Shown: positions 1,693-44,864, counted from the stretch's first letter. The stretch is 64,000 nt of DNA from Verrucomicrobiia bacterium (GCA_963664225.1 OY760937.1:416001-480000); one strand, 5' to 3'. Program-made: numbers and translations. Notes: generated by a model from the sequence alone, not told the origin.

Positions 1693-4209
1693 ATGCAACA
1701 CTGGTTTAATCCTGTCCTGCGTTTGTTGTCGAAGGGAAAGTCGTTTCTCGGCCTGGGCCTGGTTGCCGCCTCGCTGGCCGTTTCCGCGTCCGCCGCAGAT
1801 AACGACGTTCCAGGCGTGAGCAAGGTTTTCCTGACGCCGCGCCTGCATATGGGAAACACAGGCATCATGCTGGTGCAACCCATCGACGAGGCCGCGTGGA
1901 TCTGGCATCCGGAGTTCGGGAATCCCAAGGCGCCTTCACACGCGGATGCGTTCGCCAACGGCTGGAAGGAACCGGTGGTGCTGCGCTTCCGCAAGGAATT
2001 TGAGGCGAAGACTTCGCCGATACGCATTCATGTCAGCGCCGATGAGCGTTATGAATTGTTTTTGGATGGGAAGCGCATTGCGCGGGGCCCGGACCGCTCC
2101 GATGTGGAGCATTGGTCCTATGCGACCTATGAACTGCGTCTTGCGGCGGGCAATCACCGCCTCGAAGCGCTGGCCTGGAGCATTGGTCCTTATGCGCCGG
2201 TGGCGCAGTTGACGTGGCGTGGCGGATTCATTCTCAAGGCCGAAGGCGATTACGATTCCCAGCTCACCACTGGAAAGGCCGCCTGGGAAGTCGCCAAACT
2301 CGGTGGTTACGAGTTCGCTCCGGGAGTGTTTTTTGTGGGCGCACAATTGACGGTTCGCGACAGTGGTTTGCAATGGCAGGAAGGCGAATACGTCAAGGCC
2401 CAGGTCATTCGAGGAGCGCTCCACGATAATCCCTATGGCGAAAATGCCGCCGGTTGGAAACTGTTTCCCGCGACGCTGCCCGACCAGTTCGACCGCGAGG
2501 TGACCACCGGTCGCGCCATGGCGCTGGGCAGTGGAACGCTTGCGGGCGACACGCTCGTCAGCGCCGAACAGGCCCAAAATAAGGACCTGCCCAAGTGGCA
2601 GGCGCTCATCGAGGGCAAAGATCAGATCGTCGTGCCCGCGAATACGGAGCAATTTCTGCTCTGGGATCTCGACAACTATTACTGCGCCTATCCGTTGTGC
2701 GAAGTCAGTGGCGGCGCGGGAGCGAAGATTGGCTGGAGTTGGGCCGAGTCGCTTTACTTGCCCAAGTCCGAAGCCAAAGGCCAGCGCGACGAGTTCATTG
2801 GAAAAACATTCCGCGGCATGACCGACACTTTCCTGCCGGGCGGCGGTGAGCATCGCAAATTCACCACCCTGTGGTGGCGCTCAGGTCGCTGGTGCCTGCT
2901 CTCAATCAAAACCGCAGCCGAGCCGCTGACCATTCACCGGCTCGCGCTGGATGAAAGCCGTTACCCGCATGAGAACGAGGGCAAGTTTGACGCCGGAGAT
3001 TCCGAATTGGCGGGCGTCATCAAGCTGGCCGTCCGGGGCATCCAGATGTGCACGCACGAAACCTACATGGACTGCCCCTACTACGAGCAGCTCATGTACG
3101 ATGGCGACACACGCCTGGAACTGCTCACCACCGACGTCATGACGCGTGACGACCGGCTGGTCAAACGCGCCATCGAGCTGTTTGATTTCTCGCGCCGGAA
3201 TTGGGGCTTCGTCAATGAGCGCTTTCCAGCCTATCTGCCCCAGCACTCGCCGACCTTCTCGATGATCTGGGCCGTGATGCTCAATGACTTCACCTATTGG
3301 CACAACGATCCGGCGTTTGTAAAGGCGCGCGCCATTGGCCTGCGCTCCATGCTGGAGCATTTCGAGCCCTACATGAACCAGGACGGCCTGTTGGAGAATT
3401 TGCCGGGCTGGCCCTTTATGGACTGGGTGCCGCAGTGGAATACCGGCAACGCCCCCGATGGCGCGAAGGGGATTTCGTCCATCAACAACCTGCTTTATGT
3501 CTTCGCCCTGCAGAAGTCGGCCGAGGTTGAAGACTCGCTCGGCGAACCGCTCCTGGCCCAGCGGCTTCGCGCGAAAGCCGTCCGCACCGCCGCAGCCGTG
3601 CGCGCCAAATTCTGGGACGAGTCGCGCGGCCTCTTCGCCGACAACGTGAAGCACAGCGAGTTTAGCGAGCATGCCCAGTGCCTTGCGTTGCTTTCCGACA
3701 CGGTGACCGGCGACCAGGCCAAACGCTGCTTCGAGCAATTGTTGACCGCCAAGGATCTGAAGCGCACGACCATTTACTTCAGCTTCTATCTGCTGGAGAC
3801 CTGGCAAAAATTCGGACGCGGCGATCTGATCGTGGAACGCATGGGCTTCTGGAAGGACCTGGTCAAACAGGGGCTCAAAACACCGGTCGAAATGCCGGGT
3901 GATACGCGATCGGACTGTCATGCCTGGGGGAGCCATCCGCTCTTCCATCTCCATGCCAGCGTGGCTGGGGTGCGTCCCGCCTCGCCGGGCTTCCGCACCG
4001 TGCGCATCGCGCCTCAGCCGGGCACACTGCCCAGGATTGTCAGCAGCACACCTCATCCGGATGGCTTCATCGGGCTCGACCTCGCCTTTGATGGCAACCG
4101 TTGCCACGGCAGTGTGGAATTGCCCGCAGGCATCACCGGAGTATTCGTCTGGCAATCCAAAGAACTGAAATTGAATAGCGGCGCCAACGCGATTGATTTG
4201 AAACCATAA
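1693..4209 (+). CDS. Secreted alpha-L-rhamnosidase, GH78 family
   Basis: Signal peptide; SADERYELFLDG N-terminal domain; YMDCPYYEQLMYDGDTR and C-terminal RSDCHAWGSHP motifs. Start placed at ATG 1693 (ORF track begins at TTG 1627). Confidence 0.88.
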   Translation: MQHWFNPVLRLLSKGKSFLGLGLVAASLAVSASAADNDVPGVSKVFLTPRLHMGNTGIMLVQPIDEAAWIWHPEFGNPKAPSHADAFANGWKEPVVLRFRKEFEAKTSPIRIHVSADERYELFLDGKRIARGPDRSDVEHWSYATYELRLAAGNHRLEALAWSIGPYAPVAQLTWRGGFILKAEGDYDSQLTTGKAAWEVAKLGGYEFAPGVFFVGAQLTVRDSGLQWQEGEYVKAQVIRGALHDNPYGENAAGWKLFPATLPDQFDREVTTGRAMALGSGTLAGDTLVSAEQAQNKDLPKWQALIEGKDQIVVPANTEQFLLWDLDNYYCAYPLCEVSGGAGAKIGWSWAESLYLPKSEAKGQRDEFIGKTFRGMTDTFLPGGGEHRKFTTLWWRSGRWCLLSIKTAAEPLTIHRLALDESRYPHENEGKFDAGDSELAGVIKLAVRGIQMCTHETYMDCPYYEQLMYDGDTRLELLTTDVMTRDDRLVKRAIELFDFSRRNWGFVNERFPAYLPQHSPTFSMIWAVMLNDFTYWHNDPAFVKARAIGLRSMLEHFEPYMNQDGLLENLPGWPFMDWVPQWNTGNAPDGAKGISSINNLLYVFALQKSAEVEDSLGEPLLAQRLRAKAVRTAAAVRAKFWDESRGLFADNVKHSEFSEHAQCLALLSDTVTGDQAKRCFEQLLTAKDLKRTTIYFSFYLLETWQKFGRGDLIVERMGFWKDLVKQGLKTPVEMPGDTRSDCHAWGSHPLFHLHASVAGVRPASPGFRTVRIAPQPGTLPRIVSSTPHPDGFIGLDLAFDGNRCHGSVELPAGITGVFVWQSKELKLNSGANAIDLKP

Positions 4210-4234
4210 AATATTGGTTCAGCAACCGAACGCA

Positions 4235-4263
4235 ACCGACCAAAAAAATAACTTTTGGTCGGT
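4235..4263. terminator. Perfect 11-bp inverted repeat downstream of GH78 (terminator or operator)
   Basis: ACCGACCAAAA (4235-4245) / TTTTGGTCGGT (4253-4263). Confidence 0.4.
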
Positions 4264-4310
4264 CCTCATGGTTGACTCGAGACATGAGGTCGAGAGTTCA
4301 CTCAATTTAA

Positions 4311-4772: not shown

Positions 4773-6401
4773 CTACAGCTTGATTCCGAGCAGATTCAGG
4801 ATTTCCTGCTGCTGTTCGTTGGGCTGAGAGATTTGCTCAAAGTGCACGCCGCCCACGCTGACTTGTTGTTTGCGGATGCCGCGCAAATGCTCAATCACAT
4901 TTTCCATGGTCCATTGACGTTTCTTTCCTTTGCCATCCTTTTCAAAGAGCGGCTGCAATCGTTGCTTCATGTGCCAGTAAACGTAATAGGCGAGCATGCA
5001 TAAAAACACATGGCTGCGGATGCGATCATCCTTTTTGTGATACACCGGCCGAATCTCCAGGGCCACGGTCTTGAGGGTGCGGAAGGCCTGCTCGACAAAG
5101 GTGAGGCTTTTGTAGGTGGCCACCACTTGGGCCGTCTTCATCTGGCTTTCCGTCACGGTGGTGGTAATAATGTAACAGCCGTCCAGCAGTTGTTCCTGCC
5201 CGATGGCTTCCTGCTTCAAATGGTATTCCAGCCGCCCCTCTTTAACCTCCCAGTGGATGAATTTACCCATTTTGTATTTTTCCAGCAGCCGCCCCACCTG
5301 GGAACCGAGTTTCTCAGGGGTCCTTTTTTTCTTGGGCTCGACGAGCTTGTCCATACCCTGGCGGGTGAGCTCGAGCAACCGTTGGCGGGTGGCCGTTTCC
5401 CGGGCCTGAGTGTCTGGATTGCGGCAGAGACAATAGCGCTGGCCGGGCTTGTCCGGGTCGGTCACCTCGGCGATCTTCTTTTCGTCGAACAATTCGAGTT
5501 GGATGACTTTGCGCTCCAGCAGTTCGAACATCTGCCGATGGGTCAGCGCGCTGAGCGTGTGCAGGCCCTGGACCTTTTCAAGCTTCTGCGCGTTGGCCTG
5601 GGTGATCATGCCCCGGTCGCCCACGAAGGTCACCTCGCTCAAACCGTATTCACGGCGCAGCTCCTGGATTTTATCGATCACCGTCTGGGCATCCTGCGTG
5701 TTGCCCGCAAAGAGTTCGATGCCCACCGGACAGCCCCGCTCGTCGCAGAGCAAACCCAGGACCACCTGCTCGTGTCCGCTCTTGCAGTCCCGGTTGTAGC
5801 CGAAAAGCACGACGTCGCTTTGCTCGTAGGCCCCCTCAAAATAGCTGCTGGTGATGTCGTAGAGCACGACATGGCCATTGCGCAGATGTTTTTTGGCCAG
5901 GGCTTTTTGAATGGCCTCCTGGCGCTCCAGCAACCGGTCCATCGGCCGGTAGCAGTGGTCTTCAACATCCACCTCGCCAGTGACCCCGCAGATCTCCCAC
6001 AGAGCGCTGTTTTTGGTCTGGTGGGACAGGGCCAGTTTGCTGCCCGCATAAACCACCCGGCCAGCAATCATGGCCAGGCAATCCCGGACCCACGGCTCGT
6101 TGCGGGAGTAAAGAATGGTGTCCAAACCCAATTGGCGGGCCGTTTCCACAACGGCATGGCTGGCCCCGTATTCCCTGGAATCGGTGCATTGGAAGGCGTT
6201 GGGATCCTCCTTGGGGACGACCTTGCCCTGAAAGGCGGCCTGGATCAGCTTGAGCTGGTCCAGGGACACGCCGGTGATGCGCCCGTGCTGGGTGTGTTTG
6301 ACAGCTTGGGTGTCGGAGTCGCGGTAGGAAGAGCGGATCAGGCCGATGGGATTGGCCCTGTGGCTTTGGATTTCGAGGTGGAAACGCTTGCCGGACTTCA
6401 T
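4773..6401 (-). CDS. IS1634-family DDE transposase
   Basis: YDITSSYFEG, FGYNRD, VGDRGM, YKSLTFVEQAFRTLK and IRPVYH...RIRSHVFLCMLAY motifs. Start placed at ATG 6401 because the GTG at 6410 abuts the -10 box. Confidence 0.93.
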   Translation of the reverse strand: MKSGKRFHLEIQSHRANPIGLIRSSYRDSDTQAVKHTQHGRITGVSLDQLKLIQAAFQGKVVPKEDPNAFQCTDSREYGASHAVVETARQLGLDTILYSRNEPWVRDCLAMIAGRVVYAGSKLALSHQTKNSALWEICGVTGEVDVEDHCYRPMDRLLERQEAIQKALAKKHLRNGHVVLYDITSSYFEGAYEQSDVVLFGYNRDCKSGHEQVVLGLLCDERGCPVGIELFAGNTQDAQTVIDKIQELRREYGLSEVTFVGDRGMITQANAQKLEKVQGLHTLSALTHRQMFELLERKVIQLELFDEKKIAEVTDPDKPGQRYCLCRNPDTQARETATRQRLLELTRQGMDKLVEPKKKRTPEKLGSQVGRLLEKYKMGKFIHWEVKEGRLEYHLKQEAIGQEQLLDGCYIITTTVTESQMKTAQVVATYKSLTFVEQAFRTLKTVALEIRPVYHKKDDRIRSHVFLCMLAYYVYWHMKQRLQPLFEKDGKGKKRQWTMENVIEHLRGIRKQQVSVGGVHFEQISQPNEQQQEILNLLGIKL

Positions 6402-36774: not shown

Positions 36775-37386
36775 ATGAAAACACTTATTACCAGGATGGC
36801 GCGAAATATCGCCTTGGGTTGTCTCCTGCTGGCCTGCGTGGCCCCAACCGCGCGCAGCGCCGAAGCCGAGTGGACCACCCTATTTAACGGAAAAGACCTC
36901 ACCGGATGGACGGGGGTAAACGATGTAAGTTTTGAGGTCAAGGACGGCAATCTGCGCCTGGTTAAAGGCATGGGTTGGCTGCGCGCCGAAAAGGAATATG
37001 GCGATTTTGTATTGGAACTCGAGTTTCGCGCGTTGGAGGAAAAATATGACAGCGGCATTTATTTCCGCAGCGGACTCGTGGGCAAACCCTGGCCCGATGG
37101 CGGCTGGCAATTAAACCTGCGGTACGATGCCCTCGCCGGACTGGTCAAGGGCTACTCTCCCATCGTTCCCTCGGAGACGCCCAAGATCGCGTTGAACAAA
37201 TGGATGAAACTGCACCTGGTGGTCAAGGGTAAAAAGGTGACGCTGGATGTGGATGGCGAACGCGCCTGGGAATACGATGGCATTGATAAGGAGCGCGGCT
37301 ACATCGGCATTCAGGCTGAGAACAAATCGTTCGATTTCCGCAATATACGGATTCAGTCGCTCGCGAGTGACGCCCCGGCCAAGTAA
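36775..37386 (+). CDS. DUF1080 / 3-keto-disaccharide hydrolase domain protein
   Basis: LFNGKDLTGW, YGDFVLELEF, DSGIYFR and GYIGIQ...FRNIRI motifs. Confidence 0.9.
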   Translation: MKTLITRMARNIALGCLLLACVAPTARSAEAEWTTLFNGKDLTGWTGVNDVSFEVKDGNLRLVKGMGWLRAEKEYGDFVLELEFRALEEKYDSGIYFRSGLVGKPWPDGGWQLNLRYDALAGLVKGYSPIVPSETPKIALNKWMKLHLVVKGKKVTLDVDGERAWEYDGIDKERGYIGIQAENKSFDFRNIRIQSLASDAPAK

Positions 37387-37406: not shown

Positions 37407-37450
37407 AAAAGGGTCCGTTTGGCAAATCAAAATGCTGAACGGACCTTTTT
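37407..37450. terminator. Bidirectional terminator between convergent genes
   Basis: AAAAGGGTCCGTTT...GAACGGACCTTTTT. Confidence 0.75.
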
Positions 37451-37451
37451 A

Positions 37452-38858
37452 TTATTTGCGCGCGAGCGCTTCAGAGGCCGGTTTATCTGCGGCATCGGCC
37501 ACTTGAGTGGGAGGCGCCAGAGAGGATAAATAATCACCCAGCGCCTGGACTTCATCGGGGGTGCCGACCATGGGAGGCATAAAGGCGCGATAAGGAGAGT
37601 CTGGTTTGTAATCGTGCAGAATCTTGAGGAGACTGCTGATGGCTTCGCGATTCCTGCCCGCCAGCAGACGTTTCATGGGACGATAGACATCCCGCGTATG
37701 GCAGGCCAGGCACTGACCACGAAAAATGGCTTCACCCCGCGCAAAAGTGTTCGTGGTAGCCGCTCCCTGGGCGACCCATAAAGTGTGCTTGAGATAGCCT
37801 TCCGCATTGATCTTCGCTACGTCGCTTTTTCGTACTCCGTTGGAGAACATGTGCTGGCCGATCACGTAGGGTTTGCGGAGCATCTCGCGGGCGTATTCGG
37901 TGGAGGCCGTCGCCATCAGCGCCAGAAACATCACGGCCAATGCGTGCGCGCGACTGAAATCGTTCGGCGTGCGCCAGGCGAAGAAATACACGACACCGGA
38001 TATCGTGGCCGAGGTCATGACGATGATCAGCACGGTGCGGGTGACCTGCGTGAACGCCCCGGTGCCAATGGTCGATATGCCGAATTGGAGCAACGCGCGC
38101 TGGCCCTCAGGCACCATCCACAAAAACCACGCCAGGCAAAACGGCATCAGCAGAAAAGCGGGGACGAGCCATTTGGCGCTCCAGCGCACGAGTTCCGTTT
38201 TAAGTTTGGCATTATTGGAAATCTCGATGCGGCTGCAGTTGAACAGCGCCCAAACACCGGCGAGCGATACGCAGGCCAGCGCCCTCAAGAACAGGCTTGG
38301 CCAGTAGGTGGGGTTAAAGAACGCCTGCCAGAATCGGCTGGCTTCATGGCCTGTGCCCGCGACTTCCAACCAGGATCCTCCGGGCGTGAGCATGAAGGTC
38401 AGAATGCCGTTGATGATGACCAGCGTGAAGATCGAGGCGACGGCATAGACGTAGCCAATCTTTAAATGCAATTCCTTCGAGACCCGCCCCCAAGTGTAGT
38501 AATAAACCGCCGCCGTGGTCAGCTCGACCATGAAGAAGACCCACTCGATGGCCCAGCCGAAGACGAAGTTGTGAATCAACGTGCTGGTGGCTTCGGGATT
38601 CGTGAGTCCAATGGAAAACCAGATGCCTACACCCGACACGGCTCCAAACACGCCGGTCAGCACCAGAAAGAACTTGGAGTGTTTGTGCAGGATTTCGAGC
38701 CAGTCCTTGCGGCCCTCGCGCAAGGCCTTGCTTTCCGCCATCGGCAGATAAAGGCCGCCTCCCACCGCAAAGTGGGAAATCATGACGTGAAAAATGGCTA
38801 TGATGCCAATCACCCAACCGCTGCCCAGGTGGGGAACATCCCAAAACGGATAATTCAT
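37452..38858 (-). CDS. Cytochrome bd-superfamily subunit I (CydA-like) fused to a C-terminal class I cytochrome c
   Basis: Helix-1 His (FHVMISHFAVGGG), GAVSGVGIWF, WAIEWVFFMVE, FFNP and REMLRKPY (equivalent to ExGRQPW); then CLACH with a distal MPP. Confidence 0.85.
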   Translation of the reverse strand: MNYPFWDVPHLGSGWVIGIIAIFHVMISHFAVGGGLYLPMAESKALREGRKDWLEILHKHSKFFLVLTGVFGAVSGVGIWFSIGLTNPEATSTLIHNFVFGWAIEWVFFMVELTTAAVYYYTWGRVSKELHLKIGYVYAVASIFTLVIINGILTFMLTPGGSWLEVAGTGHEASRFWQAFFNPTYWPSLFLRALACVSLAGVWALFNCSRIEISNNAKLKTELVRWSAKWLVPAFLLMPFCLAWFLWMVPEGQRALLQFGISTIGTGAFTQVTRTVLIIVMTSATISGVVYFFAWRTPNDFSRAHALAVMFLALMATASTEYAREMLRKPYVIGQHMFSNGVRKSDVAKINAEGYLKHTLWVAQGAATTNTFARGEAIFRGQCLACHTRDVYRPMKRLLAGRNREAISSLLKILHDYKPDSPYRAFMPPMVGTPDEVQALGDYLSSLAPPTQVADAADKPASEALARK

Positions 38859-38886
38859 ATTACAACCAACATGTTAAAATACTTCA

Positions 38887-39966
38887 TTAGATCGCCAGAT
38901 ATCCCCAGACGGTTGTCACAATCGTCCCGATGAGCACCGCCAGACCGAAATAAGTGGCCACACGCGCGCGTCTTCCCGCAGGGGACTTGATGTTGTAAAG
39001 CGGCACCAGCATCCACAAAACGATGCCCAACGTGAATACGCCCATTCCCAGGAATTCACCCGCCACGCCGGGCACCCAATCGCCCAGCACCTTCAAGACT
39101 TGGAATTGGCTCATGAAATACCATTCCGGATGGATGCCTTTTGGCGCGGGCTTGAGGGAATCAGCCTGCACGCCCAAATCCCACGGAAACAGCGAGGCCA
39201 GCAGCGCGAGAATGTTCAGTGCGATGAGCCACATGGCCAGATCTTTGGCCATGAAATTTGGGAAAAACGGAATGCTCTTGCGCTCCGCCGGCGGTTTCAA
39301 TTCCTCCGAAGGGGGCACGGCATTTCCGTGTTTTTGCACGAGCCAGAGATGAAATCCGAGCAACGGCAGAAACAGCGCGGGCAGCACAACCACATGCAGG
39401 GCGAAGAACCGCTGAACGGTGAATTCGTTCACCTCAGTGCCACCGCGCGCCAGCGTGGCGATCGTATGTCCCAAAACAGGCATCGATTCGGGAATGGCCA
39501 GGCCGACTTTGGTGGCGAAATAGGCCAGTTCGTTCATCGGCAGCAAGTAGCCGCTGAATCCGAATACCATCGAGAGCATTAGTAATCCCATGCCGCTCCA
39601 CCAGCCGAATTCGCGCGGCTTCTGGTAGGCTTTCATGAAATAGACCGAGAACATATGGATGAAGATCGACGCAACCATCAGGTTCGCCGCCCAGGAATGG
39701 GCCGAGCGTATCAGCCAGCCAAAATTGATCTCGAAGGTCAATTGACGCACCGATTCAAACGCGTCCGGCCCGGGGCGGTAATAGACCAGCAGCAGCACGC
39801 CAGTGAAGGCTTGCACGAGGAAGAAAAACAGCGAGAGCCCGCCCCAGTAATACCAGGCGGAATGGCGATGGAGCGGGACGGTTTTCTTGCTGGCAAAATG
39901 AACCAAATCGGCCAGTCCCAGCCGGTCGTCCATCCAATGGTATATCGATCCCATCAACGCTTTCAT
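38887..39966 (-). CDS. Cytochrome b of a Rieske/cytochrome b complex (unsplit b6 plus subunit IV-like)
   Basis: RSAHSWAAN...IHMF, FSGYLLP, RFFALH-x14-H and PEWY motifs. Confidence 0.95.
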   Translation of the reverse strand: MKALMGSIYHWMDDRLGLADLVHFASKKTVPLHRHSAWYYWGGLSLFFFLVQAFTGVLLLVYYRPGPDAFESVRQLTFEINFGWLIRSAHSWAANLMVASIFIHMFSVYFMKAYQKPREFGWWSGMGLLMLSMVFGFSGYLLPMNELAYFATKVGLAIPESMPVLGHTIATLARGGTEVNEFTVQRFFALHVVVLPALFLPLLGFHLWLVQKHGNAVPPSEELKPPAERKSIPFFPNFMAKDLAMWLIALNILALLASLFPWDLGVQADSLKPAPKGIHPEWYFMSQFQVLKVLGDWVPGVAGEFLGMGVFTLGIVLWMLVPLYNIKSPAGRRARVATYFGLAVLIGTIVTTVWGYLAI

Positions 39967-40019
39967 CGGTTGCCCTGGAAAAAGTTAAATGTCATATCGC
40001 TCTTGTTTAGCGCTCTTGT

Positions 40020-40499
40020 TTAGGCGCGGGAAACGACCACCCCATCGGGAGTCACTTTGGCGTTGTAGCGTTTGAGGGGACGCGGCGGCGGGCCGCTGAC
40101 ATTTCCCCCGGTTTTGGGATCATAAACGCCGCCGTGGCAGGCGCAATGTATCCGGTTTTGCGCCGCCTCATATTCGACCGTGCATCCCAGATGAGTGCAG
40201 ACCGCGTCCAGCGCGACCCACGAATCATCCGCATGATGAATCAGTAAGGCCGGTTTCGAGCCAAACTTGAACATGAGCGAGGTGCCCTTGCCGAGTTTTT
40301 CGGCGTCTTTAAGGGTTACTTCCGTCACGGCTGTGGCATTTTCGGAGCGTTCCACAGGCGAGGCGAGATACCGGTAAACCGGGTATCCAATGGCCGCCGC
40401 GTAACACGCCCCCACGCCGCCCAAGGCGACACGAACAAAGGTGATCCGGCTCATTAAATCCGGCGCCGGTGTGTTGATTGCTGCTGGTTTATTCTTCAT
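40020..40499 (-). CDS. Rieske [2Fe-2S] protein
   Basis: CTHLGC...CACHGGVY...GPPPRPL motifs; N-terminal anchor helix. Confidence 0.95.
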   Translation of the reverse strand: MKNKPAAINTPAPDLMSRITFVRVALGGVGACYAAAIGYPVYRYLASPVERSENATAVTEVTLKDAEKLGKGTSLMFKFGSKPALLIHHADDSWVALDAVCTHLGCTVEYEAAQNRIHCACHGGVYDPKTGGNVSGPPPRPLKRYNAKVTPDGVVVSRA

Positions 40500-41611
40500 C
40501 AGGCGACTTTCTCAGAGACGGGTTTTGCATTTCTGGTGACCCACACCAGCCAGGCGACCGTCGCCAGTCCGGCCACAAATAAAAACAGGAACAGCCCCAC
40601 AACCGACCAGTTGGTTTCCACCTGGCGGTTCCAGACATCCAATCCCTTGCCTGCGAGGGTCAAATCGCGGATTCCATCGCGGAACATCGTCCAGGCAAGC
40701 ATTCCCACCAAACCGCAGATACCTGCGATCCATCCCAGGGCCTTGCCGGTTGGTTTTGCGAATGCAGACCAAATTCCAACCAGAAAAACCAGTGCGGCGA
40801 TTCCAAACCCGACGTAAGCCGCTATTTGATAGACCGGGTTGGACGTGAGGCCCTGACGCACGGTTTCCGGTTGCGCCTGGAAAACCTTCCAGGCCACGAA
40901 GGATTGAACGATGACCATGACCACGGCGATGCGGCCGCCATTTCCTGACAGAAAACTGCGGACATCTCCGGAGAGATTTTTGCGGCCTGCCAGATAAAGC
41001 ATCCACAGACCCGCCATCGTTAAACCGCCTGTGATCATGAATCCCCAGCGCGCCATCGAGGTGGCATCATGCGGCGGCAAATGGGCGCCAATGCCCGAGG
41101 CCGAATACATCTGATTCCACACTTCGGGCCGCAGCATCAAGGTCATGTTTGTGGTGTAAATCTTGGCGATGCTGGCAGCCAGCAGCCACGAAACCAGACC
41201 CAAGGGCCACGCGGTCCGGCCCGACTCGATGCGCGCGGCAAATTGATAAAGCAGCCAGTAACAGGCCATGAGGAGGAAAACCACGCCAATCCAATAGACG
41301 CCAATCAGGATGCTGCTGGTGTAGAGGGCGCGTCCGTAGAGCACCTGCGCGAACAACAGCGGCGGAACCCCCAGGTTGATCACATAGGTCATGACGATGG
41401 GCAGACGCCGCGCCATCGTCGATGCGGCGTTCAAATGCACCGCCGAACCGCTCAATTTGCCACGAAAACTCAGCCACACCGCCACCAGTATTCCACCGAG
41501 CATCATTTCCACGGAAATGAAATGGAGCGCCAAAGTGAGAATATGCAGCGCCTTGAACATCCAGACCGGCGCGGGCAGGGGAATGGGATCGACAGCGGGG
41601 AATAGGTTCAT
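40499..41611 (-). CDS. Polytopic membrane protein, probable CydA'-like partner subunit
   Basis: About 9 transmembrane helices; LHFISVEMMLGG, INLGVPPLLFAQVLY and RDGIR patterns parallel the CydA fold; TGATG overlap with the Rieske gene. Confidence 0.65.
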   Translation of the reverse strand: MNLFPAVDPIPLPAPVWMFKALHILTLALHFISVEMMLGGILVAVWLSFRGKLSGSAVHLNAASTMARRLPIVMTYVINLGVPPLLFAQVLYGRALYTSSILIGVYWIGVVFLLMACYWLLYQFAARIESGRTAWPLGLVSWLLAASIAKIYTTNMTLMLRPEVWNQMYSASGIGAHLPPHDATSMARWGFMITGGLTMAGLWMLYLAGRKNLSGDVRSFLSGNGGRIAVVMVIVQSFVAWKVFQAQPETVRQGLTSNPVYQIAAYVGFGIAALVFLVGIWSAFAKPTGKALGWIAGICGLVGMLAWTMFRDGIRDLTLAGKGLDVWNRQVETNWSVVGLFLFLFVAGLATVAWLVWVTRNAKPVSEKVA

Positions 41612-41797
41612 GGGTTCACGAGGTGGGCAGGCCGGAGCGACGCAAACCCGCACATTTCAAAGTGCGGGAGGCGCGCCTTGGGCTCAGCGGTACTCCGGTT
41701 ATTGAGAACGATTTTCATATCGATTGGAGCGAACTTTATCATAAAACCAATATTGTGCAAATTAACTATAATAATGCAAACAATAATAAACCATAAT

Positions 41798-41829
41798 AAA
41801 AAAACACCCCCGGTTTTGGAGGTGTTTTT
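41798..41829 (-). terminator. Probable intrinsic terminator after 41881-42405
   Basis: AAAAACACCCCC-GGTTTT-GGAGGTGTTTTT. Confidence 0.65.
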
Positions 41830-41880: not shown

Positions 41881-42405
41881 TTAGTTGCTGATCATGGGAC
41901 AACCATCCATATACCCTTTCCCCCTGCCCCATCCCATGCCCATTCCACGTCCACAATTGCGTCCATGGCGACCACGTTGCATTCCGAATGGATCCATCCG
42001 TTGTAAAAAAGTCTGGTCTGCGGCGCCAAGGGTGCCAGCCGCTTTTTTTGCGTTTAACGCTGCAACGGCCGGGCACACGGGGGCTGTTGTGCCAAACGCC
42101 TGCGGGGTAAACGCACGACCAGCTCCGCGCGCCGGGGTGCCGGTGATGCAAATACCGCCGCGTTGTTCAGCCTTGTCGAGCCAGGCTTGTTCGGCCGCAT
42201 TGAGGGTTCCAGCAGCTTTTTTGGCGCGCAAAACTGCAACGGTGGTTTGCATTAGTTCGCGGCGCTGAGAACGTTGTTCAGAGCTCAGGCCCAGTCCCCG
42301 GCCCCTTTCCAGGGACGGCAGGGGATTGGTCTGTGCGTTGACATCTGCCATCAGGGCGACCAACCCTGCGAGCACCGTGGCGAGGTATCGAATTCTTATT
42401 TTCAT
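41881..42405 (-). CDS. Secreted small protein with internal duplication and Gly/Arg/Met/Cys-rich segments; possible accessory protein of the two-component system
   Basis: Signal peptide; AVLRAKKAAGTLNAAEQAWL versus AALNAKKAAGTLGAADQTFL; divergent from the response regulator. Confidence 0.75.
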   Translation of the reverse strand: MKIRIRYLATVLAGLVALMADVNAQTNPLPSLERGRGLGLSSEQRSQRRELMQTTVAVLRAKKAAGTLNAAEQAWLDKAEQRGGICITGTPARGAGRAFTPQAFGTTAPVCPAVAALNAKKAAGTLGAADQTFLQRMDPFGMQRGRHGRNCGRGMGMGWGRGKGYMDGCPMISN

Positions 42406-42532: not shown

Positions 42533-42609
42533 AGTTGGAGCATTCCTGAAATGGATGCCATAATGTGAATTGGAGATCACCGGGAATGTGCGATGTCGGA
42601 CGCTGCATC

Positions 42610-43377
42610 ATGAATGAACCAAAGCATGCTCAAAATGTTCGGGAAACGGATGCGGAGGGCCGTCACCGTCTTTTGATGATCGATGATGACCGGAAATTGT
42701 GCCGCCTCATCAGGGATTACCTGGAACCGCTCGGTTATGAGGTTCATGCCGTTTACACGGGGCCGGATGGTTTGCAGAAGGCGCTTGGAGAGACATGGCA
42801 GGCGGTGCTCCTGGATGTCATGCTGCCAGGGATGGATGGCTTGGAGGTTCTCAAACAGATTCGTGCGAAATCCGATGTTCCGGTGTTGATGCTGACCGCG
42901 CGCGGAGAGCCGCCGGACCGTATTGTCGGTTTGGAGTTGGGCGCGGACGATTACCTGCCAAAGACCTTTACCACGCGCGAATTGCTGGCCCGCCTGCGCG
43001 CGGTGATCCGTCGAAGTGCGATCCAGAAACCAAACGCAGTGGGGCAGGGGGCGGAAGAGTTGGTTGTGGGCGGTTTGCGGATTCTTACCGGACCACATCT
43101 GGCTACCTTCGGGGATCAACCGCTCTCGCTGACTCCCGTGGAATATGATTTGTTACTGGCACTGGCGCGGGCCAAGGGCCGGGTGAAAACGAGGGAAATG
43201 CTTTTGGAGGATATTCGGGACCGCCAGTATGAGGCGTTTGACCGGTCCATCGACGTGCACATTTCATCTTTGCGCAGGAAGTTGGGGGACGACCCGAGGA
43301 CGCCCCGATATATCCGCACGGTGCGCGCCGCTGGTTATATGCTGGTCGATCCCCGGGAACCTGACTTTGAGCCATGA
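42610..43377 (+). CDS. OmpR/CpxR-family response regulator
   Basis: IDDD, LLDVMLP, LTARG, GADDY and winged helix RSIDVHISSLRRKL...IRTVRAAGY. Confidence 0.95.
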   Translation: MNEPKHAQNVRETDAEGRHRLLMIDDDRKLCRLIRDYLEPLGYEVHAVYTGPDGLQKALGETWQAVLLDVMLPGMDGLEVLKQIRAKSDVPVLMLTARGEPPDRIVGLELGADDYLPKTFTTRELLARLRAVIRRSAIQKPNAVGQGAEELVVGGLRILTGPHLATFGDQPLSLTPVEYDLLLALARAKGRVKTREMLLEDIRDRQYEAFDRSIDVHISSLRRKLGDDPRTPRYIRTVRAAGYMLVDPREPDFEP

Positions 43378-44864
43378 AAACGGGACTGCCACTTTACGCA
43401 AAAATCCTGATCTGGTTTTTTCTGAACCTGCTGCTCCTGGTTCTGGCCTTTTGGATTGGCATTCGCGCGCAATTATACTCGGGATTCGATACGCTGCTTT
43501 CCGCGCGCGCGGGTGAGCGGATGCAGGTTCTGGGTGATTTGGTGGGAGGCGAGTTGAGGGACAGCCCGGTTGCCGAATGGAATCGCGTTTTGGCACGGTT
43601 CAGCGCGGCCTACAAGGTTCAACTGATTCTCTTGGACGGGAACGGCAAGGTGCTGGCGGGAGGGTCTGTTATACTGCCGGAGGCGGTGTTGAAAAGCATG
43701 GGCACTCCGGCTTCGATGAGTGTTACACGTCAGCGCGGCCGGGGCGGGCCTCCCTGGGCCGTTTCCGGCACAACCACGACCGATGGGGGTGGCATTGGGA
43801 TGGGGATGGGAGGCGGGGCGGGGTTGGGGTGGGAATTCAAGTTTTTCATTCGCACAGACAGCCCAACGCGTTACTGGGCGGGGATGCGATTGCCAGCCGT
43901 GGCGGCGGGTCATCCCGATTGGCGTCCCATCACGCTTGTGGCAGTGTCGGATTCGTTGAGCGGCGGGGGGCTGTTTTTCGATGTTGGCTCATGGCTGGCC
44001 GTGGCTGGGGCCGTGGTCGTGCTCTCCGTTTTGTTCTGGCTGCCATTGGTGCGTGGCATTACGCGCGCCACAAGCCTCATGACAAAGGCCACGGGGCAGA
44101 TGGCCGAGGGTCATTTGGAAGCCCGGGTGGAACTGCACCGGAGTGACGAACTGGGACGGCTTGCGCAATCCATCAACCTCATGGCCGGTCGTCTTGAGAC
44201 TTACGTTTCCGGTCAACGCCAGTTTCTGGGAGCCACAGCGCACGAATTATGCTCGCCGCTGGCGCGCATTCAGGTCGCCCTTGGAATTCTCGAGCAGCGC
44301 GCCTCATCGCAGGAGCAGGAACGCTTCAAGGATTTGCGCGAGGATGTCGATTCCATGTCCCGAATAGTGCATGAATTGCTGTCCTTTTCGAAAGCCTCCT
44401 TTGGCACCGCCGCGGTTCAACTCCAGTCGGTCCCGCTGTTTTCCGCGGTTGAGCGTGCTGTACAACGGGAGGTTCCACCCCCAACGACAGTCCAGATTCA
44501 CATTCCCGGGAGCCTGGCGGTGATGGCCGAACCGGACCTGCTGCAACGCGCCCTGGGCAATATCCTGCGCAACGCGGTTCGATACGCGGGCGACGCCGGG
44601 CCTGTCATCATTACGGCGGAGAAGAACGCGGATGGTGCGATCCTGTCCATTGCGGACAGTGGGTCTGGGGTGCCCGAGGAGGCGCTCCCCATGTTGTTCG
44701 ATCCGTTTTATCGCGTGGAAAGCTCCCGTTCGCGCGATACCGGCGGGGCGGGGCTTGGTCTGACGATCGTGAAAACGTGCGTTGAAGCGTGCGGAGGTAC
44801 GGTGAGTTGCCATAACCGGAAACCTGCGGGATTCGAGGTTGTGGTGAATCTGACCTGCGGTTGA
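43374..44864 (+). CDS. HAMP-domain sensor histidine kinase (CpxA-like)
   Basis: Two transmembrane helices, HAMP (DELGRLA), H-box AHELCSPL, N-box NILRNAVRY, G-boxes DSGSG and GAGLGL. Confidence 0.95.
   Translation: MKTGLPLYAKILIWFFLNLLLLVLAFWIGIRAQLYSGFDTLLSARAGERMQVLGDLVGGELRDSPVAEWNRVLARFSAAYKVQLILLDGNGKVLAGGSVILPEAVLKSMGTPASMSVTRQRGRGGPPWAVSGTTTTDGGGIGMGMGGGAGLGWEFKFFIRTDSPTRYWAGMRLPAVAAGHPDWRPITLVAVSDSLSGGGLFFDVGSWLAVAGAVVVLSVLFWLPLVRGITRATSLMTKATGQMAEGHLEARVELHRSDELGRLAQSINLMAGRLETYVSGQRQFLGATAHELCSPLARIQVALGILEQRASSQEQERFKDLREDVDSMSRIVHELLSFSKASFGTAAVQLQSVPLFSAVERAVQREVPPPTTVQIHIPGSLAVMAEPDLLQRALGNILRNAVRYAGDAGPVIITAEKNADGAILSIADSGSGVPEEALPMLFDPFYRVESSRSRDTGGAGLGLTIVKTCVEACGGTVSCHNRKPAGFEVVVNLTCG

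Follow-up and report, generated by a model that had tools for sequence, protein, structure and literature searches.

In the textbook view, bd oxidases work around complex III and little energy is conserved, and the actinobacterial bcc-aa3 and the bc1-cbb3 assemblies are obligate or hard-wired complex III-IV supercomplexes. Here we analyzed a four-gene cassette in a 64,000-nucleotide stretch of DNA (the window) from a Verrucomicrobiia bacterium (GCA_963664225.1, OY760937.1:416001-480000), in which genes for a Rieske protein (B) and a cytochrome b (C) lie between genes for two membrane proteins (A and D) related, as argued below, to the bd-oxidase subunit CydA. The original prediction, made from the DNA sequence of the window, proposed that this cassette encodes a supercomplex in which a cytochrome c fused to D replaces cytochrome c1 as the acceptor of the Rieske protein and feeds a bd-type reductase of O2 (or NO).

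The described systems that come closest belong to the OR-C family. According to the main text of the preprint by Murali, Gennis and Hemp (10.1101/2021.01.16.426971), OR-C proteins are CydA homologues without a quinol site, typically with eight helices and a C-terminal periplasmic haem c (OR-C1a). OR-C1b is a paralogue adjacent to OR-C1a; the "a" subunit keeps the two channel glutamates and the "b" subunit does not. The spacing of the glutamates is shortened in OR-C, with tyrosines following, the expected donor is cytochrome c and the expected activity is O2 reduction. The word "Rieske" has 0 occurrences in that main text, and the operon-context figure and the supplements of the preprint may show the cassette. 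Our literature search found no paper describing a Rieske/cytochrome b plus OR-C1 cassette, again leaving aside what the figure and supplements may draw. A second precedent comes from Nitrospirales, where, in the relevant passages of PMC12342949, an alternative complex III (ACIII) is followed by an OR-N5 bd-like oxidase, i.e., a quinol-oxidising complex stands beside a non-quinol oxidase and coupling is presumed.

An open reading frame (ORF) scan of the window, which is part of a 5.78-Mb single-contig genome, placed four consecutive genes on the minus strand at 37452-41611, in the order A-B-C-D (Table 1). The longest ORF of gene A, 40499-41653, opens at a GTG codon at 41653; because the homologues (~120 among the matches listed) are 370-375 amino acids (aa) long and cover 96% of this ORF, the ATG at 41611 is taken as the true start. 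The stop codon of A and the start codon of B overlap as TGATG, with the base A in common, and the B-C and C-D spacings are 53 and 28 bases, respectively. The predicted order of a membrane protein, a TGATG-coupled Rieske protein, a cytochrome b and a CydA-like protein with cytochrome c was confirmed by the ORFs and by Pfam. In public annotation A is "hypothetical" and D is "cytochrome ubiquinol oxidase subunit I". From sequence features and structural models together, we consider it moderately likely that the four genes encode one self-contained membrane-bound assembly, leading from quinol through Rieske/cytochrome b and haem c to a di-haem O2-reducing site.

Protein D matched PF01654 (E 9.4e-19; 67.7 bits, the cut-off being 26.2) over residues 15-204 only. 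A profile search of the Protein Data Bank (PDB) with D returned the CydA of bd-II (E 0.0022), with H24, E105 and E112 on the known His/Glu/Glu positions, which are His19, Glu99 and Glu107 in the E. coli numbering used in the OR-C preprint. The spacing between the two glutamates of D is shortened, and a cluster of tyrosines comes after them. The model of D alone has eight long helices up to residue 336, and VIA-align superposed residues 5-336 on ten CydA chains with Z of 26-27.7 and 308-339 aligned residues. The superposition skips the Q-loop (residues 10-332 of the model versus 3-455 of the chain). Of the hallmarks of quinol-oxidising bd enzymes (qOR), the Q-loop is missing from D and the haem b558 ligands His186 and Met393 appear to be missing as well; from residue 132 to residue 386 no His is invariant in 57 sequences, so that a haem b558 site is unlikely. 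As in OR-C1a, the eight helices are followed by a C-terminal CxxCH haem c domain. The family matches of this domain were weak: PF13442 reached 22 bits, under its cut-off of 27, and the PDB profile matches were to cytochrome c6 chains (E 0.08-0.3). The helix-1 His, the E..E pair, the RxP block and the CxxCH...M motif, all of them seen by eye in the original prediction, were each found and are conserved in the 57 sequences, and the lack of a long Q-loop, likewise seen there, was confirmed for D. It appears that D no longer has the Q-loop for quinol binding nor, as the absence of ligands suggests, haem b558, and that it gained a periplasmic His/Met c-type haem.

Protein A has no Pfam or NCBIfam family. 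None of 65 members of its own family matched PF01654 or PF02322 in Pfam (0/65), BLASTP of A against D saw no relation (E 1.0), and a profile of the A family found nothing relevant among PDB sequences. When the A and D families were aligned as profiles with hhalign, a relation was detected (90.7%, E 1.2e-6, 301 columns), with His30 of A (41522-41524), invariant in 65 sequences, aligned to His24 of D. The 65-sequence alignment holds no conserved Glu pair. The AlphaFold2 model of A, with a predicted local distance difference test (pLDDT) score of 95.1, has nine long helices, and Foldseek ranked CydA chains 1-10 (E 1.8e-5 to 4e-4; template modeling score, TM, 0.59-0.67) and CydB chains next. Judged by profile and predicted fold, A is a bd-superfamily member, a CydA paralogue standing in the place of CydB. 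The claim that both flanking proteins belong to this superfamily was therefore upheld, for D by the Pfam score above cut-off and the Z values to CydA, and for A by hhalign and the ten best Foldseek hits. A has the OR-C1b hallmark of a CydA paralogue with an equivalent of His19 and without the two channel glutamates; the hallmark of adjacency to OR-C1a was not seen, as the Rieske and cytochrome b genes intervene in 67/67 complete loci and in the window. By the features described for those subunits in the main text of the preprint, A corresponds to OR-C1b and D to OR-C1a, a pair that was catalogued in 2021, and the cassette is, as read from its sequence, a Rieske/cytochrome b-containing variant of the catalogued OR-C1 family.

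Protein B matched the Rieske family PF00355 (E 4.8e-14) and protein C matched PF00033 (E 3.8e-43) and PF00032 (E 4.5e-7). The cluster boxes CTHLGC...CACH of B lie at 40134-40199, and its C101, H103, C106, C119, C121 and H122, the disulfide cysteines included, are invariant in 57 sequences, as are the haem ligands H90, H104, H191 and H206 of C and its PEWY motif (39118-39129). The hallmarks of a Rieske/cytochrome b unit (CxHxGC...CxCH boxes, four haem His and the PEWY Qo motif) were all found, and C is the most conserved of the four proteins, with a mean column identity of 76%. The best NCBIfam model was the b6f Rieske subunit for B and cytochrome b6 for C (203 bits against a cut-off of 325). 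All NCBIfam scores of B and C fell under the curated cut-offs, so that neither protein counts as an equivalog of any named complex. In cytochrome b6 the haem c_n Cys stands before GG; C has an invariant Trp (W41) there. A c-type subunit of its own (c1, f, dihaem or fused c) was not found for the B/C unit: the cassette has no such gene, as predicted, and its sole c-type haem motif is that of D. Cytochrome c1 (PF02167) had no match in the 5.78-Mb genome, the model being a narrow one that matched 1/14 control genomes. At the N-terminus of B (40445-40499), a twin-arginine export motif, T-R-R-A-F-L, is the consensus of the family, and the protein of the window reads S-R-I-T-F-V, with a single Arg.

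The distribution of the cassette was analyzed next to its sequence. At E <= 0.001, D had 5363 relatives among 8000 candidates scored, and A had relatives in 1134 cluster representatives. A D that is 70% identical to that of the window is named as coming from Fontisphaera persica. With one genome per species, 251 stretches encode a D relative, and the best 80 loci, those closest to D and with at least 60% identity, were fetched. The gene-order survey bore out the original prediction: the order A-B-C-D on one strand was kept in 67/80 loci, the remaining 13 are cut off by a contig end that lies no more than 175 bases upstream of the first gene detected, and nowhere is the order contradicted (0/80). 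By record titles, the cassette occurs in Verrucomicrobiota, Acidobacteriota, Hydrogenedentota, Chlorobiota, Planctomycetota, Nitrospirota, Omnitrophota and Armatimonadota. D-like genes were present in 20/151 sampled genomes of the window's order (16 of those 20 with at least 64% identity) and in 6/301 genomes of a phylum sample, so the distribution is patchy. Gaps of more than 300 bases separate B from C in 15 of the 67 loci and C from D in 11. In one Acidobacteriaceae locus (L067) unrelated genes are inserted, a 254-aa ORF (3542-4306) between B and C and a 131-aa ORF (5555-5950) between C and D; by eye only, these look short-chain dehydrogenase-like and four-helix-bundle-like. No flanking gene (maturation factor, small subunit or regulator) was shared across phyla in the 25 loci scanned. 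The D protein of a metagenome-assembled genome (MAG) titled Nitrospiraceae (L054) is almost identical to that of a Hydrogenedentota MAG (L041), with end branches of 0.006 and 0.023, and the two have the same flanking families, DUF7544 and DUF1501; this reflects either a misassigned bin or a very recent transfer.

Physical coupling was addressed with a model of the B, C and D complex, in which D was the scored partner, and which was built from our own 57-row alignments from the same loci and accompanied by three controls. The model scored 0.63, and the best of the three controls 0.11. The 0.63 mark was reached by 116/157 solved complexes and by 2/215 mismatched pairs, counts that are rough for a case with own alignments and three chains. 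At least 48% of the contacts agreed between runs, and the pLDDT of the partner was at least 77. We know of no solved complex of the Rieske/cytochrome b plus bd-like type, so that the pass is unlikely to be recall. In the confident interface of the model, helices 7-8 of D (265-322) meet helix E of cytochrome b (232-259) and the anchor of the Rieske protein (25-36). The predicted supercomplex was supported in that the model docks D on cytochrome b and the Rieske anchor; for the Rieske head and the domain that carries haem c, no confident contact was listed. We infer from this model that D would contact the Rieske/cytochrome b unit.

Natural fusions also join parts of the cassette. A and the Rieske protein form one chain in P0392 (569 aa), P0245 and P0264, all with intact cluster boxes, and D and A form one chain in P0354 (807 aa). 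Where A is fused to the Rieske protein, the ninth helix of A is succeeded by the linker and the Rieske anchor, a topology that would fit a Rieske head in the periplasm. A search for fused forms of A with a greater length (649-2000 aa) found none, which is weak evidence. In a further protein, P0383 (560 aa), A is joined to a Tll0287-like domain with a CxxCH motif.

In the assembly that we favour, B and C would form a b6-type quinol-oxidising Rieske/cytochrome b unit without c1, f or dihaem c, and A and D would form a bd-superfamily heterodimer (OR-C1b plus OR-C1a). D would keep the di-haem O2-reducing site and the proton channel residues, i.e., His24, Glu105, Glu112 and the Glu/Arg block 321-330. 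When a (mena)quinol is oxidised at the Qo site of C, one electron would pass to the Rieske cluster, the fused haem c of D, the di-haem site and O2, and the second would be recycled via the two b haems of C. The protons for O2 reduction would enter by the Glu105/Glu112 channel. The domain content, conserved ligands, folds, gene order and natural fusions are observed; that the parts touch, the path of the electrons, O2 as their acceptor and the proton-motive yield are what we infer, with the three-chain model in support of the contact. The original interpretation is supported as far as computation reaches.

Several points weigh against this assembly. O2 as the substrate is deduced solely from the conserved bd-type residues. 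The confident contacts of the B+C+D model are all between membrane helices, with none listed for the Rieske head and the haem c domain, and the pLDDT of the D model is only 74, a middling value. As to generality, the perfect synteny belongs to the clade of close D relatives only (at least 60% identity). Distant relatives of D occur in modules of only two genes, A and D, that lack Rieske and cytochrome b (L091-L094); A stands beside D only in the more distant modules L091, L093 and L094. Five genomes of one genus, described below, have no detectable cytochrome b. Finally, the genome of the window already encodes cydAB of the canonical type, a quinol NO reductase (qNOR) and, next to an ACIII gene, a haem-copper oxidase, and has no evident need for a further branch; the cassette is therefore an extra branch.

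Table 1. Features of the cassette, its surroundings and related loci (positions without a locus or genome prefix are those of the window).
Feature	Position	Strand	Basis or remark
Gene A, 370-aa polytopic membrane protein, OR-C1b-like	40499-41611	-	fold and profile comparison
Gene B, Rieske [2Fe-2S] protein with N-terminal membrane anchor, 159 aa	40020-40499	-	PF00355
Gene C, cytochrome b, b6-like half and subunit-IV-like half in one chain, 359 aa	38887-39966	-	PF00033, PF00032
Gene D, OR-C1a-like CydA homologue with C-terminal mono-haem cytochrome c, 468 aa	37452-38858	-	PF01654
D H24	38787-38789	-	invariant in 57 sequences
D E105	38544-38546	-	invariant in 57 sequences
D E112	38523-38525	-	invariant in 57 sequences
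D EYAREMLRKP block (E321/R324/E325/R328/K329/P330)	37869-37898	-	conserved in 57 sequences
D CLACH (C383-x-x-C386-H387)	37698-37712	-	conserved in 57 sequences
D M427	37578-37580	-	conserved in 57 sequences
Terminator-like hairpin, 18-pair stem, T/A runs on both sides	37407-37450	.	consensus pattern match only
Terminator-like hairpin 3' of upstream gene 41881-42405	41800-41829	-	consensus pattern match only
Second Rieske and cytochrome b-cytochrome c fusion	G000:C1 about 2589548-2591958 (L007:5549-7959)
Canonical cydAB	L008:4797-7186
Haem-copper oxidase near ActD/NrfD (ACIII) gene	L009:6166-12356
Quinol NO reductase (qNOR), NorB with cytochrome c-like domain	L010:6587-8857
Cytochrome b-less cassette variant	L095:4941-8015 (G345)		same arrangement in G417, G466, G504, G538

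One alternative, which we rate as improbable, keeps the assembly and changes its acceptor: quinol-pool electrons arriving via Rieske/cytochrome b would be used by the di-haem site to reduce or detoxify some small oxidant such as NO, H2O2 or peroxynitrite. Side activities of canonical bd oxidases with NO and H2O2 are on record (Eichorst et al.; titles among the references of PMC12342949). Furthermore, an Rrf2-family regulator (PF02082) adjoins the cassette in 3/25 scanned loci (L038:2852-3307, L063:1584-2117 and L084:1952-2479), all of them acidobacterial, and an ORF that is Rrf2-like by eye lies upstream of the cassette in the acidobacterial L067 (986-1531). Some Rrf2 members sense NO. However, the genome has its dedicated qNOR, and most holders of the cassette belong, by title, to taxa that we take to be largely aerobic. 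D also keeps the bd channel Glu pair and the His ligand that the main text of the OR-C preprint ties to O2 reduction (10.1101/2021.01.16.426971).

The second alternative arises from a cassette variant. It was seen in a single genus of the window's order, in which all five species sampled (G345, G417, G466, G504 and G538) have an A-Rieske fusion (569 aa in G345) followed directly by D with haem c. Neither cytochrome b (PF00033) nor haem-copper oxidase (PF00115) was matched in any of the five genomes (0/5), which are 71-93% complete by marker count; that of G466 is a single 2.7-Mb contig. In G345 and G417, NrfD/ACIII and any bd-family gene besides D were not found, and NuoH is present. D was the only terminal oxidase detected in this genus, with PF01654 covering 2/5 genomes and PF00115 covering 5/5. 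A tree of D with 31 rows (LG+G4, quick search), whose deep branches are long and unsure, placed the D of the fusion genus inside the cassette clade with a Shimodaira-Hasegawa-like approximate likelihood ratio test (SH-aLRT) value of 96, on a long branch, and the D proteins of the two-gene modules in a separate long-branched group (SH-aLRT 95). This nesting suggests that cytochrome b was lost in the fusion genus while the other parts were kept, rather than an ancestral state. Since the genus keeps Rieske, A and D without a detectable cytochrome b, the Q-cycle part would not be an obligatory partner in every lineage.

From these data it could be argued that the bd-like oxidase has the Rieske protein among its own subunits, and that an A/D/Rieske core draws electrons, with no need of cytochrome b, from the quinol pool or some other donor, C being in the window an add-on that recycles the second electron. 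The lack of any PF00033 or PF00115 match in the fusion genus, the presence of NuoH in two genomes without another detected NrfD/ACIII or bd-family gene, and the position of the fusion-type D inside the cassette clade all speak for such a core. On the other side, we know of no Rieske protein that oxidises quinol without a cytochrome b partner, the genomes of the fusion genus are incomplete, some unrelated protein of the periplasm or the membrane could be the donor, and the fusion-type row sits on a long branch of a quick tree. In the window's clade, moreover, cytochrome b is never absent and shows the highest conservation of the four proteins. Taken together, we hold this explanation to be improbable as well. 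A broader proposal, unlikely but conceivable, is that Rieske, OR-C1b and OR-C1a constitute the conserved functional core of a new class of copper-free terminal oxidase, with the Rieske cluster instead of haem b558 as the entry for quinol-derived electrons; cytochrome b would have been captured in the window's clade, giving a single-particle "complex III+IV", and the core would work without it in the small-genome genus. If such a core were true, it would imply a quinol- or donor-oxidation site of an undescribed kind. The cytochrome b-less variant is a natural experiment on a Rieske protein without cytochrome b.

It is very improbable that the cassette encodes two separate, co-transcribed complexes, a Rieske/cytochrome b unit that reduces a soluble or lipid-anchored cytochrome c and an independent OR-C1 oxidase that oxidises it. 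The A/D modules without Rieske or cytochrome b (L091-L094) indicate that OR-C1 can use other donors, and a cytochrome c donor is what the main text of the OR-C preprint proposes (10.1101/2021.01.16.426971). However, in that case B/C would lack a c-type subunit as no other Rieske/cytochrome b unit of the genome does, B and C separate A from D in every complete locus, A-Rieske fusions exist, and the B+C+D model docked well above its controls (0.63 versus 0.11). A chance juxtaposition or an assembly artefact was rejected in view of the cross-phylum synteny and the single-contig genome.

The cassette is bounded by two terminator-like hairpins. The one at the D end directly follows the stop codon of D and is common to D and to the convergent gene 36775-37386. 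As pattern matches only, the two hairpins fit a four-gene transcription unit that is set apart from its neighbours. A pattern scan between 41611 and 41800 gave no convincing promoter match. The upstream gene (41881-42405, minus strand) encodes a 174-aa protein with a signal-like N-terminal stretch and an internal repeat, for which Pfam and NCBIfam returned no family match. Divergent from it, at 42565-44864 on the plus strand, are look-alikes, by eye only, of an OmpR-type response regulator and a histidine kinase. Elsewhere in the genome (Table 1), the second cytochrome b, with its own fused cytochrome c, is only 31% identical to C. The canonical cydAB pair also lies away from the cassette, in which, as the original prediction says, there is no canonical cydB.

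If the proposed assembly is true, a bd site fed by a Q-cycle would be the third hard-wired complex III/terminal oxidase besides bcc-aa3 and bc1-cbb3, and the first without copper. The cassette occurs in hard-to-grow lineages of soil, peat, freshwater and groundwater, and knowledge of the substrate and affinity of its oxidase would alter the genome-based reading of oxygen physiology in Verrucomicrobiota and Acidobacteriota.

Compared with canonical CydAB (5doq, 6rko and 7ose), the cassette shares the fold, in D (Z 26-27.7) and in A, and the His/Glu residues of the di-haem site and the channel are kept. In contrast, D has no Q-loop and no invariant His at 132-386 that could be a ligand of haem b558, the partner subunit is not CydB but a paralogue of CydA that has a conserved His, and electrons are proposed to enter via the fused haem c rather than from quinol. 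Compared with b6f and the Firmicutes b6c complex, the best models for B and C are the b6f Rieske protein and cytochrome b6, and the four haem His, the PEWY motif and a subunit IV-like part are in common, whereas C fuses b6 and subunit IV in 359 aa, there is no cytochrome f or c subunit, and the NCBIfam scores lie under the cut-offs. As in bcc-aa3 and bc1-cbb3, a quinol-oxidising Rieske/cytochrome b unit would pass electrons via a bound c-type haem with no soluble carrier. To the complex III-IV assemblies presumably also belongs 8smr, which appears in the Foldseek listing of protein A. Unlike bcc-aa3 and bc1-cbb3, the cassette oxidase is predicted to be copper-free and of the bd superfamily, its haem c belongs by fusion to the oxidase subunit instead of complex III, and all of the parts are encoded in one four-gene unit.

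The likeness to OR-C1, as this family is described in the main text of the preprint, is closer. D has CydA's first four helices, the His and the two Glu, the short Glu spacing, the Tyr cluster, eight helices, no quinol site and a CxxCH domain, and A is a paralogue without the two Glu, as in the described "b" subunits. The differences are that Rieske and cytochrome b genes lie between A and D, whereas the described OR-C1b and OR-C1a are adjacent, and that the model of A has nine long helices and not eight. With the ACIII/OR-N5 pair of Nitrospirales, as the relevant passages of PMC12342949 present it, the cassette shares the gene adjacency of a quinol-oxidising complex and a non-quinol bd-like oxidase; here, however, the donor would be Rieske/cytochrome b instead of ACIII, the oxidase is of the OR-C and not the OR-N type, and the oxidase genes bracket those of the donor.

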